A DNA stretch of 64,000 bases from Chrysomallon squamiferum (taxonomy: Eukaryota > Animalia > Mollusca). The number at the start of each line of letters is the position of its first letter. The first letter of the stretch is position 1. Below are positions 54,772 to 60,550 of the stretch, in pieces. Location of the stretch: positions 6,324,001-6,388,000 of the forward strand of contig CM022671.1 of NCBI GenBank assembly GCA_012295275.1. Reading direction: 5' to 3'. Below the pieces are notes generated by a model, which did no database searches, was not told where the DNA came from, and saw only the letters and a program-made list of their open reading frames with translations. The translations under genes and the position numbers were made by a program.

Positions 54772-55699
54772 ATGAGAATTGTCCTGCTTCTAGCAGTTGT
54801 CATCGCTGTTGCTGTCACAAACGGTGAAGCTTGGAGATTACGTCGTGTGTGGCGCAGAGTGAAACCTGCCGTTATTAGTACAGCTATCAAACTCGCCATT
54901 GTAGCTATTGGAAAAAGAAGTAATAAAATAAATTTAAGTAGTGAATACAAACAACAACAAATACTGCTATTATAATCAATTACAATTAGTATTAATACTA
55001 CTAATAACAACAACTACTACTACTGCTTTTACAACAATAATTACTACTACTGCAACTACCGTTGAAACAACAACTAGTATTACTACTACCCCTACAAAAG
55101 TAATAAATCGTTTTAATTTTGTAAAATCTTGTATAGCAAGTTCTGGATACGATTTGCAAATGACATCAATAAAATGCAAAATCGAAGACTATAGGGATCT
55201 ACATGCCGTGCATACTTAATTACATTTAAAAAATAAACAGTATCACAGTAGTTATTTTATTATTATTATTATTATTTTTTATTATTATTATTATTATTAT
55301 TTTTTTTTTTGGAGGTGTGGATGAAGTTGATGTTAACAATGACGGTGTGATAGGCAAAGACGAAATCGAGGCTATTCTAAGTAGTCGAGATGCAGACGAA
55401 CTTCTGGAGTTTGCTGATCGTGATGGTGAAGATTTTTATTTTTATTTTTTTATTTTTTTCAGTTTAATTTAGTTTAGTTTGTTTGTTTGTGTGCACACAC
55501 ACACACACACACAAACACACACACACACACACAACACACACACACACACACACACACACACGTATTTATTTAACTTGAAAATGTTTGATGGATACATTTA
55601 ATAATTTCTCTAACTTTGTTTACTAATTTACGTGTAGCTGACGAGATTGTCACCAAGGAAGAACTGCAGCAAATCTTCGATGAATTCAAACATCAGTAG
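54772..55699 (+). CDS. Secreted precursor 1: signal peptide + cationic amphipathic 26-mer + GKR + two EF-hands (106 aa)
   Basis: Exons 54772-54919, 55315-55425, 55638-55699: MRIVLLLAVVIAVAVTNGEA / WRLRRVWRRVKPAVISTAIKLAIVAI / GKR / SVDEVDVNNDGVIGKDEIEAILSSRDADELLEFADRDADEIVTKEELQQIFDEFKHQ*; 3'UTR exon from ~55990 with AATAAA. Confidence 0.85.
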
Positions 55700-56682
55700 T
55701 TGTAAGTTTGTAATAAAATACACGTTCGAATATTAATTAAATATACGTTCAAAAAATATACGTTCAAATCTTAATCATATATTTATATTAATAAGTATGG
55801 AAACTGTTTAATTGGAAAAAATCAGTTAAAATTGCTTTAGATCTTTGTATGTGTACAAATATGAATTTTAATGTCAAGTTTTGTAACCCATGCGCTAAAT
55901 ATATTTATGAATTTGTGTTAAATATTTAAATGAGATTACAAACAGAAGTCTGAACATAGAAAGTGAATATATTGTTTTTTTTGTTTCAGACTCATCCAAG
56001 TTTAACCAGAAAAATGTCCAAACAGAAGTCCTAGAGGTGACCACATTGAAAACAATAAATATGAAACCTCTCTAAAATCAGTTTTATGTTTTAATTTAAT
56101 TTAATTTAATTTAATTTAATTTAATTTATTTTTTTTTTTATTTTATTTTTTTTATTTATTATTATTATTATTATTATTATTATTTTATCAATACTGATGT
56201 AAGTTAACAGTCCATAATCACATGTGTGAGTACGGCTGTTTTGGTACGTTTTTATGTAACAGAAATACAAAAGATGATATATTTTTAAATAAACAAATAA
56301 ACAAACAAACAAATACATAAGGAAATAAATAAAGAAATAAACAAAGAAATACATAAGAAAATAAACAAACAAACACACAAACGAGGTGATTTGAAGAGGA
56401 GAAAACTTTTGTAGGAACTGAATTGAATTTGATCAGTGTCCAAACTAATCTGATATATATCAAATTTTGTTACAAAATCGGTCATTTGTTATTACTACTA
56501 CTACTTCTATTCATTTTATTATTATTATTATTATTATTATTATTATGGAAGTGCACGTATATTGAACCTTTAGCATTTGTCAGCTTCTGATTGCTTCAAA
56601 GGTATTTTGCTACAAGTGTGTGACATCGCGATCAGATCGAGAATTTTGTGATATTAAAAGTAGCGGAAGGCCAACCGACGCG

Positions 56683-56880
56683 AAAACAATGACGGGGGTG
56701 ATCTACAAAGACGAAATCGAGGCTATTCTAAACAGTCGACAAGCAGACGAACTTCTTGAATTTGCTGATCGTGATGGCAAAGATTTATTTTTTTAGACTC
56801 ACCCAAGTTTGACCAGCACAATGTCCAAACAGAAGACAGAGATGTGAACACAATAAAGATGAAACCTCTCTAAAATATGT
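56683..56880 (+). pseudogene. Relic of a peptide/EF-hand gene: frameshifted exon 2 fused to the 3'UTR exon
   Basis: aacaatgacgggggtgatctacaaagacgaaatcgaggct...gctgatcgtgatg followed by GC instead of GT, then agactcacccaag...aataaa; no exon 1 or exon 3. Confidence 0.75.
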
Positions 56881-58201
56881 TTTTCATTTTATTTTGTTTT
56901 ATTCATTCATTCATTCATTCATTCATTCATTCATTTATGTATTTTATGAATACTGATGTCGGTTAATAAAGTTAACAGTTGATAAATATCACACATGTGT
57001 CAGTATGGATGTTGGTGCGTTTGTGTAACAGAAGTTAATTTTCAAGTGGAGTAGTTAAAAAATATTTTGAATAAACAAACAAAAACATAAGAAAATAAAC
57101 AAATAAACAACCAACCAGCCAAACAAACAAGCAATTAAATAAACAAACAAAACTTTGTAATAATAAAACATACGAGGTGACATGAAGACGAGAAGATTTG
57201 TGTAGAAATTAACTTGAATTTGATCAAACTAATCTGAAAAAGTAAACAGAACAGTTTAAACAAGTTCAGCTAAGAAACTGGTTTAAGAGAGAATCATTTC
57301 ACAACTTAGATTTACCAGTCAGTTTACCAAGAACTATAACCGAAGACATTCCGTATAATTTGACAAATTGTCTTTGCACGTAGATTTGAGAAAGGCCAAA
57401 CGTTTATGTAGAAGTCACCAAAATAATCAAATCGAGTTTATCGTAACTTGATAAACACACTGAGGTTATTAGACATTGCTTTTAGTGGACGAAAACTAAA
57501 AATCGTAAATTTTGTTGATAGAATCTGACGTTTTGATACAAAATTTTAATGTATTTAATATGTTATTGGGAAAAGTGATGCAGAAATCCTGTTTCCACCT
57601 TATTTTGGAAAAACTGTCACCAAGGTGACAAATGGAGCTGAAATGTGTACGTATAATCACCCTTCTTTTCTCTCTCTGCTTTAACATCACCATCCTTTAC
57701 TTCTTTTCTTGTTTCAAAGATGCTGGCTTTTTGTAGCATTTGTGGACGCATTTTTACAAATATAGTACACAGACACGTTTGTATATTTTATATGAACTGT
57801 CGTGTGAAGAGAAGAATATGTCCCATTGTCTTTCATGCACCAGTCGTGTTGCCATGGTTCAGATGGGGGGAAAAGGACAATGACAATCACGTCCATTGGA
57901 GAGGGTCAATTCTGTTAACTGTGCACATCAGGCGAGAAAATTCCATTTCAGTTTGTATATCATCACTACTCGCCGATCTTTACTTTAATATATCAAATTA
58001 TATTACAAAATGATGTTCATTTGTTACTACTAATACTAATACTTCTATTAATTTCATAATTATTGTTATTATTATTATTATTATTATTATTATTATCATT
58101 ATTATTATTATTATTATTATTATTATTATTATTATTATTATTATTATTATTATTATTATTATTTTATCAGGTGATGAAATTTTTTTAACAAATGTAAACT
58201 T

Positions 58202-58299
58202 CTCAGATCAAACCAGAATACCAGCCTGGGATTGACTACGACAGAAAAAATCGTTACGCAGAAAGGAAACGATGGAAGGAGGATTATCAACCTGAACAG
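58202..58299 (+). pseudogene. Duplicated fragment of the MRPL18 last exon (start of tandem unit 2)
   Basis: Near-identical to 53438-53535 ([28 protein letters not shown]); stop TAG changed to CAG. Confidence 0.85.
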
Positions 58300-59529
58300 C
58301 AGAAACTGAGATTTAATTTTAGTGTGAATATCAAACATGATTAATTTACTGTAATCAAGTAAATTTCTGTCAGCTTTATTCATGAAACAAACACTTGTGT
58401 GATTAACAGTGTAAAATTTGAGTAAAAACTTATATTTTTTACAATAACTAAAAGCAGTACCAGATTTATGCATAAACTTGACAAATTACAGCTTAGGTCC
58501 TCAATCTGCAGAAATAAAGTCTTGTTCCTAGTTATCTCCCCTCTGAAAAAACGTTCATTGCTGGTTTTATTGGCTGTCATCTTGTGGTGTTTACAGATTG
58601 TTGATGATGTTCCACTTAACACAACAAGCAGAACTGAGTAATAATGTAAAAAAACAATTGTGTGTGTGTGTGAATAAAGAAGGAAATAAAACCCCATTAA
58701 CACCACAAGTTGAGCTATCTGTTACTTCCTGGATTAATATTCAGTGATGCTAAAAGATAAACACTTCATGTCTGCACCATGCCTGAAATATAAATCTGTC
58801 CAGGACATAACAGATAATTAACACAACATTAATTAAACAAATTATGATGATAAGATGAGATAATAATGTAATTACAAGCAGTGCATGAATCCAGTGTGTG
58901 AAATCCTGGTGAAGTTTAAAATAAATAGAGTCACTTAGCTACATTTTAAACCATTTACTGTTGTAAGACTGCAGAGAAAACAACAATGTAAGTACAACTA
59001 TTTTTTATATATTAAACTTATGATTATGGTCTATTTTATTATTTATTTATTTTAATATTTGTGTTCGCTGTCACTGCTATGTTCAGCCATTCTATCTTTA
59101 AGTAATTCAAAAGTTTATTTATTTATTTGTCTGTTTATTCCTTTAATGATTACTGTGTAATTCATGAAATTTACGGATGCTATTTATTATGAATAATAAT
59201 AATAATAATGAAAAATTAGTAATTATAGAGATTAATTAAAATAACAAAATCTGGCTTACTTGTTAAAAAAAAAAAAAAAAAAAAAAAAAAAAAAAAAAAA
59301 TGTTAAGGTGAAGATTTCTTTCCTTCCGAGTTAGCTCCCTCTATGAAGTACGTTATGATTTCCTCCCATTTTCATATTCCATTACAGTCATCAACTTACG
59401 ACCAGGTTACGTTCCGACTAAATGGGCGTAAGTTGGATATCTGTTATTTGTATGCACGTAATCACGTTATCTCAACCTTAAGTAATCCATGTTTTTTTTA
59501 GTAAACCCTTTAATTGGTTTAAATCAAAG

Positions 59530-60550
59530 ATGAGAGTCGTGCTGATTCTAGCAGTTGTCGTTGCTGTAGCTGTCACAAACAGTGATGCTAGTTGGGGACG
59601 TCGTGCATGGCGCAGAGCCAAACCTTACATTATTGAAGCAGCCAAGCAGATCCTCTTTAAAATTATTGGAAAAAGAAGTAATAAACAAGTTTTAAGTAGT
59701 GAATATAAACTCAGACTACAAAAATAAATACTACTACAACAACAGCTACTACTAGTAGAATAATAAAAATAACAAAGTTGTGGATACGATTTGCAAATGA
59801 CACCAGTAAAATGCTCATTCGAAGACTAGGCACCTACATGACGTGCATATTAAATTACATTTTAAAAAGATAACAAACAGCATCGCAGTATTTATTTATT
59901 TATTTATTTATTATTATTATTATTTATTTTTTTTTTTTTTATTATTATTATTTTTTCATTTTTTATTTAGTATTAATATTATTATTATTATTATTTTTTA
60001 TTATTATTATTATTATTATTATTATTATTATTATTATTATTATTATTATTATTTTTGTTTTTTGTTTTGTAGGTGTGAATGAAATTGATGCGAACAATGA
60101 CGGTGTGATAGACAAAGACGAAATCGAGGCTATTCTAAGTAGCCGAGAAGCAGACGAACTTCTGGAGTTTGCTGATCGTGATGGTAAAGATTTATTTTTT
60201 AATTTTTATTTTTAATTTTTTTTTTTTTTTTTTTTTTTTTTCAGTTAGTTAGTTTGTGTGTTTTTTGTTTTTTAAAATATTTGTTTGTTTATGTATATAT
60301 GTGTACACTCGTACATGGACATGGATTAATTTTAAAGTACTTCCAAGTACAGTACATACACAAACAAACACACGCACAGAGAGACACACACACACAAATA
60401 TATATATATATATATATATCTCAATTTTAAAATGTTTGGTGGATACATTTAGTAATTTCTCTAATTTTGTTTACTAATTTACATGTAGCTGACGAGATTG
60501 TCACCAAGGAAGAATTGCAGCAAATCTTCGATGAAATCAAACATCAGTAG
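59530..60550 (+). CDS. Secreted precursor 2: signal peptide + cationic amphipathic 26-mer + GKR + two EF-hands (106 aa)
   Basis: Exons 59530-59677, 60073-60183, 60489-60550: MRVVLILAVVVAVAVTNSDA / SWGRRAWRRAKPYIIEAAKQILFKII / GKR / SVNEIDANNDGVIDKDEIEAILSSREADELLEFADRDADEIVTKEELQQIFDEIKHQ*; exon sizes 148/111/62 as in copy 1. Confidence 0.88.

Follow-up and report, generated by a model that had tools for sequence, protein, structure and literature searches.

A tandem family of predicted secreted precursors in Chrysomallon squamiferum, combining a hypervariable cationic peptide with an EF-hand propiece

A 64,000-nucleotide stretch of the genome of the mollusc Chrysomallon squamiferum (GenBank assembly GCA_012295275.1, contig CM022671.1, positions 6,324,001 to 6,388,000; hereafter the window, within which all positions are counted) carries an array of tandem units of ~4.7 kb each, recognised by self-comparison of the window with blastn and home to a set of peptide genes. 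Two intact copies, A (ATG at 54772) and B (ATG at 59530), each encode 106 residues, arranged as a signal-like segment of 20 residues, a peptide of 26 residues, the tripeptide GKR and a propiece of 57 residues. We consider it probable that this is a tandem family of secreted precursors, each of which would yield an amidated cationic 26-residue peptide (likely an antimicrobial that acts on membranes) alongside an acidic propiece with two EF-hands, the peptide being shaped by selection together with exchange between copies.

In the proposed pathway, the precursor would be secreted via its signal peptide, a convertase would cut at GKR, the customary mark for such processing and for amidation, and carboxypeptidase E and PAM amidation would complete the peptide, as is described for myticalins in the accessible text of PMC5577615. 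The released peptide would act as an antimicrobial, its side-chain charge (+7 in A, +6 in B) having been masked in the precursor by that of the propiece (about −14), and would diversify by positive selection aided by sequence exchange between copies. Both mature peptides show the net positive charge and amphipathic helix potential that define linear cationic host-defence peptides: the hydrophobic moment is 0.78–0.79 over mature residues 1–11 and 0.34–0.42 over the whole peptide, the C-terminal half is hydrophobic and neither precursor contains any cysteine. A language-model search with exon 1 placed pleurocidin, cecropin and ranatuerin precursors as the nearest clusters (0.77–0.78), which we treat as a lead only. 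A match of the copy B signal to the Pfam family Myticin-prepro (E = 0.27) was dismissed as chance.

Divergence between copies and among other versions

The initial annotation had described a mature peptide that diverges far more than the parts around it, and its residue identities between A and B were reproduced: 15/20 in the predicted signal peptide (54772..54831 in A, 59530..59589 in B; all gene features are on the plus strand), 10/26 in the predicted mature peptide (54832..54909 and 59590..59667) and 51/57 in the propiece. By sequence reading, the signal of copy A consists of Met-Arg, a hydrophobic core and an N-G-E-A end, and its mature peptide has an amphipathic N-terminal half. Variation is greatest at the C-terminal end of the peptide, where 3/14 residues are identical at residues 33–46.

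Base differences between A and B follow the same order, at 9/60 in the signal, 30/78 in the mature region and 9/171 in the propiece (by exon, 7/111 in exon 2 and 2/62 in exon 3), and the mature region is set apart from both signal (p = 0.0024) and propiece (p = 2e-10). The flanking non-coding DNA is alignable, as had been stated, with blastn alignments extending over kilobases; differences there amount to 15/111 and 11/78 in two intron blocks, 51/308 in the 3′ flank, and 26/299 and 35/467 far upstream. The mature region exceeds every cleanly aligned flank or intron (7–21%), and differs from introns and 3′ flank combined (77/497) at p = 7e-6. In the 200 bases before the ATG, 67/194 positions differ; this segment aligns poorly, with long gaps, and was not taken as a yardstick. 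The contrast in divergence is not due to chance.

It had also been proposed that length, an RRxWRRxKP motif and GKR are retained. Between A and B this is so (26 codons each, the motif in both, GKR identical at 3/3 residues), but length and motif fail in other versions of the gene, which were sought in contigs from five of ten listed sequencing runs, namely X1, X2, X3 and X9 (compared with copy B) and X1, X2, X3 and X6 (compared with copy A exon 1) and which could be alleles or recent paralogues. The equal length of A and B is partly coincidental: one B-like contig (X1 record 3) has seven substitutions, four of them visible, and one extra codon that gives it the N-terminus of A, GWRLRR. A and B thus probably differ by two offsetting codon insertions or deletions, and a gapped alignment of their mature regions leaves 11/25 residues identical and 25/75 bases different.

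A second B-like contig, X3 record 19 (278 nt), has two substitutions, both of them replacements within the peptide (S21G and Q40R). In run X6, A appears in two versions of 140 nt: the first is identical to it, and the second (record 26) has ten differences, nine of which lie in the peptide and change six residues (p = 0.04); of these ten differing bases, five agree with copy B, consistent with patchwork exchange. Among loose contig ends translated by hand, one version starts RRRFRHVWHK, one reads KPYVIKTAIG and one, which continues VGRAIKSAVI, is about three residues shorter by register and without RRxWRR. Other contigs bridge from signal to GKR and skip the mature region of B (five in X3 and three in X1, one per run being copy A by depth); joints of low likeness can be spurious, and all four joint rows start and stop at or near the peptide edges. 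Judged from these contigs, hypervariability is family-wide, and a fixed length and RRxWRRxKP are not. When contig depths were summed, the signal and EF-hand exons far exceeded the peptide, but such a sum is not a copy number and was not used as one. The RNA run X9 gave no contigs on copy B, which is evidence neither way on expression.

Selection, exchange and competing explanations

Nei-Gojobori estimates of the ratio of non-synonymous to synonymous substitution rates (dN/dS) were 1.7–2.0 for the peptide, 0.45–0.50 for the signal and 0.46–0.59 for the EF-hand exons. The proportion of differing non-synonymous sites (pN) was 0.38–0.43 in the mature region, compared with 0.12 in the signal (p = 0.005) and 0.05 in the EF-hand exons (p = 5e-8), and exceeded the divergence of the nearest upstream non-coding block (0.21, 41/196) by a factor of 2.1–2.6 (p = 0.001–0.014). 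The corresponding synonymous proportion (pS) was 0.22–0.28 in the mature region and 0.22–0.23 in the signal. A host-defence peptide under diversifying selection, the interpretation first offered for this locus, therefore stays the best one and is partly supported: the excess of pN speaks for it, but the refuting conditions named alongside it are not cleanly averted, the raised dN/dS falling short of significance. Positive selection on the peptide is, on this sequence evidence, likely but unproven.

Exchange between units was evident just upstream of exon 1. In a three-way alignment of upstream sequence from units A, B and C (865 gap-free columns), the topology switches (p = 3e-12): in the left part A and B are sisters (odd-one-out counts of 22 for A, 13 for B and 77 for C), and in the last 196 columns B and C are sisters (37, 4 and 7, respectively). 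A and B thus diverged longer ago in the block adjoining exon 1, whose divergence of 0.21 matches the synonymous divergence of exon 1, at 9/38 (0.24), as against 3/38 (0.08) in the EF-hand exons (p = 0.11). Recent gene conversion of exons 2 and 3 had been named as a possible source of the contrast; the introns around these exons have not been homogenised (13–14% diverged), and synonymous divergence in the EF-hand exons (3/33 in this comparison) is in keeping with the rate in the introns (p = 0.23).

Several observations weigh against the selection account or restrict it. With two copies, the raised dN/dS of the peptide is not significantly above 1: 11–17% of bootstraps fall at or below parity and the bootstrap interval spans 1 whichever of four variants of the calculation is used. 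The hydrophobic half alone gives 3.9–4.7, with 2–5% of bootstraps at or below parity, but that half was picked after seeing the data. The non-coding yardsticks, including the introns, were chosen as alignable and so are biased low. Synonymous sites in the peptide are themselves raised relative to pooled non-coding DNA (p = 0.04), and the two fully listed variants show nine replacement and two silent steps, as under neutrality (p = 0.46). X1, X2, X3 and one X6 contig all carry copy A exon 1 without a single changed letter, which speaks against rapid ongoing change, although one of these runs may be the source of the window. The mature peptides matched no Pfam family. Differing block ages may account for part of the contrast between peptide and EF-hand region. 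Expression, processing and antimicrobial killing are predicted from genomic sequence.

The most serious competitor dispenses with positive selection: a peptide constrained loosely, for charge and amphipathicity, would lie in an old block, while gene conversion or unequal crossover later homogenised exons 2–3 and the DNA far upstream. The mosaic ancestry of the array, the agreement of the upstream block with exon-1 synonymous divergence, the lower synonymous divergence of the EF-hand exons and the neutral-like ratio of replacement to silent changes in the variants all fit. We nevertheless judge it unlikely, because mature pN exceeds even the local yardstick and is three times that of the signal on the same exon, so block age is not the whole explanation; moreover, the diverged introns show that no recent conversion tract takes in the EF-hand exons together with their introns, and only eight of the first 46 bases from GKR onwards differ. 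Still less probable, in our estimation, is a locally raised mutation rate, or a series of short conversion patches from distant paralogues, striking the 78 peptide bases and merely filtered by selection. This would explain the raised silent changes in the peptide and the X6 variant with its differences concentrated there and half of them common with B, and a raised dS with a suggested elevation of mutation rate is reported for the piscidin mature region in the accessible part of PMC2830478. Against it, mature pS is not above that of the signal, and copy A exon 1 is unchanged over four runs.

The peptide might instead be amidated and secreted for some purpose other than killing microbes, as a pheromone- or neuropeptide-like signal or as a cytolytic peptide used in defence or feeding, with receptors or prey as the targets against which it diversifies. 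Amidated neuropeptides and toxins are indeed generally built with a signal peptide and GKR. Neuropeptides, however, usually conserve the amidated C-terminal end, which is the most variable part here, and the high charge, the amphipathicity and the anionic propiece fit membrane-active peptides; we give this option only a slim chance.

Gene structure and genomic setting

Each copy has three coding exons, phase-1 introns and GT-AG intron ends. In copy A, GKR and the phase-1 end of coding exon 1 occupy 54910..54919 (GT at 54920); coding exon 2 (55315..55425) encodes EF-hand loop 1, the linker and the start of loop 2, and coding exon 3 (55638..55701, stop at 55697–55699, GT donor at 55702) encodes the remainder of EF-hand 2. 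The corresponding features of copy B are at 59668..59677 (GT at 59678), 60073..60183 and 60489..60552 (stop at 60548–60550, GT donor at 60553). The GT-AG junction of exons 2 and 3 makes residue 87 an alanine in both. Exon 2 matches Pfam EF-hand_1 with 25.9 bits in B (E = 6e-6), above the cut-off of 25.4, and with 22.3 bits in A (E = 8e-5), below it. The second EF loop, read by eye as D-R-D-A-D-E-I-V-T-K-E-E, crosses the exon 2/3 junction and is without the usual glycine at position 6.

The acceptor of exon 2 is TAG in copy B and GAG in copy A (55312–55314), the latter a rare type of acceptor that may be spliced inefficiently. A GTAAGT donor stands two bases past the stop codon in both copies (55702 and 60553), which implies that an intron interrupts the 3′ untranslated region and that the gene ends in a conserved non-coding exon. 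That exon is likely to lie at 55990..56059 in A, after an AG at 55988–55989 and ending near AATAAA at 56054–56059, and is conserved in B at 60803..60872, where it would likewise end near AATAAA. Segments resembling it also occur at 56791 and 61470. Upstream, a polypyrimidine tract and AG lie ~26 bases before each ATG (54746 and 59502), with a second AG immediately before the ATG, an arrangement suggesting that, as in myticalins, the first exon is non-coding.

Unit A (53432..58195, ~4.76 kb) starts within the last exon of the upstream gene and unit B (58196..62833, ~4.64 kb) switches its relationship to units A and C near 58960–59030. Only the start of unit C (62834..64000) is in the window, identified by a blastn match of 57817–59284 with 62468–64000; these three units are given without strand. 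From its position in unit B, the peptide exon of unit C is expected ~250 bases past the window end. A relic of a further copy (56685..56903, plus strand), found by blastn and alignment and matching in tblastn at 24/27 residues, joins the 3′ part of exon 2, with GC at the donor, straight to a last-exon-like segment without exon 3. Intact copies next to such a relic would fit birth-and-death evolution.

The upstream gene (52521–53535) we take to be mitochondrial ribosomal protein L18-like (Pfam E = 0.19 for one exon). Every tandem unit starts within its last coding exon, which is repeated in part at 58196 and 62834, so that the 3′ end of this gene, probably with its 3′ untranslated region, is duplicated before each peptide gene. 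Further away on the minus strand (2648–32190), nine long open reading frames match ANF_receptor and two match 7tm_3, and are likely to represent two tandem class C G-protein-coupled receptor genes, each with four or five consecutive Venus-flytrap domains; the more downstream of these ends in a reading frame with a 48-nt tandem repeat (2896–3450). One neighbouring class C receptor exon has 52% and 58% identity to proteins of two bivalves, the only two matches among 7996 candidates scored, which by itself points to a mollusc but not to a particular class. Inverted repeats of ~630 bp with 95% identity, at 48882–49505 and 50768–51397, are separated by ~1.26 kb and have related pieces at 38717–40255; they are probably a non-autonomous DNA transposon.

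Relation to known families and significance

Two mussel families come closest, compared here as they appear in the accessible text of the sources cited. Myticalins and modiocalins of the Mytilidae (PMC5577615, PMC12294457) likewise have a conserved signal, a hypervariable cysteine-free cationic peptide (23–42 residues there), a Lys-Arg site often preceded by a glycine for amidation, an anionic C-terminal extension, a phase-1 intron directly after the cleavage site, and clustered paralogues and pseudogenes. However, the signals here start MR(I/V)VL, contain no cysteine and do not follow the myticalin consensus MKGXXLLLLTIXXALCMIXECEG (PMC5577615); the myticalin coding sequence spans two exons and contains no EF-hand (a term with no mentions in the text of PMC12294457), compared with three coding exons and a strongly conserved EF-hand pair here, and the peptide here is not proline-rich. 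Restriction to Mytilida and gill-specific expression are given as criteria for membership of the myticalins, and other mussel peptides are called 'devoid of a defined 3D structure' (PMC8004829). Mytimycins, antifungal peptides of Mytilus (PMC8004829), share the succession of signal, mature peptide, basic site and conserved anionic propiece with two EF-hand loops, but their mature peptide is longer, cysteine-rich and disulfide-bonded (PMC8004829, PMC7653742), with no cysteine here, and their cleavage site is of the KRKR/KRKRR type without glycine, as against GKR (PMC8004829). The linker between EF loops is ~22 residues in mytimycin and 17 here, measured by eye, and the propieces are likened by layout. 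The present genes belong to neither family because each fails a defining test here; going by predicted features, the arrangement is that of a myticalin-type peptide borne on a mytimycin-type propiece.

Fish piscidins and pleurocidins, cecropins and frog skin peptides also place an amphipathic cationic helix after a conserved signal, with the mature part evolving faster; they come from other phyla and were not matched through Pfam by the peptides here. The same pattern of fast mature region and slow signal is found in frog peptides and conotoxins. For piscidins, the available part of PMC2830478 reports positive selection, a fast mature region and slow signal, and raised dN and dS, together with a highly variable prodomain, whereas the propiece here is the most conserved part. 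A protein of 293 residues (P0019), whose N-terminus is hydrophobic and which contains three compact EF-hand pairs, shares the loop-helix-helix-loop spacing and 19/39 residues with exon 2, but has cysteine-containing repeats and neither cationic peptide nor GKR. Its first EF loop comes after a segment that does not look helical, and it is the closest in spacing to the propiece.

Searches for homologues gave negatives of differing reach. Exon 2 against longer proteins yielded ten candidates, none at E ≤ 0.01, and exon 1 against proteins of 26–86 residues yielded none, a length range that full-length precursors of ~106 residues fall outside. A profile of exon 2 had 960 matches among 1.84 billion representatives, and the best 150 were all multi-EF-hand proteins, none with the layout of signal, cationic peptide, GKR and EF-hands; this is a weak negative, since true single-domain relatives could rank below the best 150 of the 960. 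JGI metagenomes held no match to the exon 2 pattern and none of 321 exon 1 candidates was confirmed, while the nine PDB matches were generic EF-hands. Literature searches for the same layout with a cysteine-free peptide found no description, most subscription papers being outside their coverage, and a term search of the accessible text of a review from 2025 on antimicrobial peptides in aquatic invertebrates (PMC11767717) did not return 'EF-hand'. The family and its union of cysteine-free peptide and EF-hands appear undescribed; the evolutionary pattern itself is already known.

A bolder idea, drawn by analogy with calmodulin and in our view doubtful, is that the EF-hand pair serves as a calcium-switched holster, which would bind and silence any peptide that retains a basic, tryptophan-bearing amphipathic helix, let it go on secretion and so leave the peptide free to vary. 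GKR and the first EF loop are just five residues apart, and EF-hand 1 of the precursor may therefore be completed by the C-terminal helix of the peptide itself. The mytimycin EF-hand propiece has no known function according to the available text of PMC8004829; the holster module, if real, would also explain that tail.

Molluscs have yielded few families of antimicrobial peptides that lack cysteine, as stated in the accessible part of PMC12294457. A hypervariable mature region is in itself textbook and unsurprising. The 106-residue precursor, with its short, easily synthesised linear peptide and 57-residue EF-hand pair, offers a simple system in which to ask whether such a propiece takes up calcium and shields the peptide it carries, and the array offers a compact case for separating selection from gene conversion.

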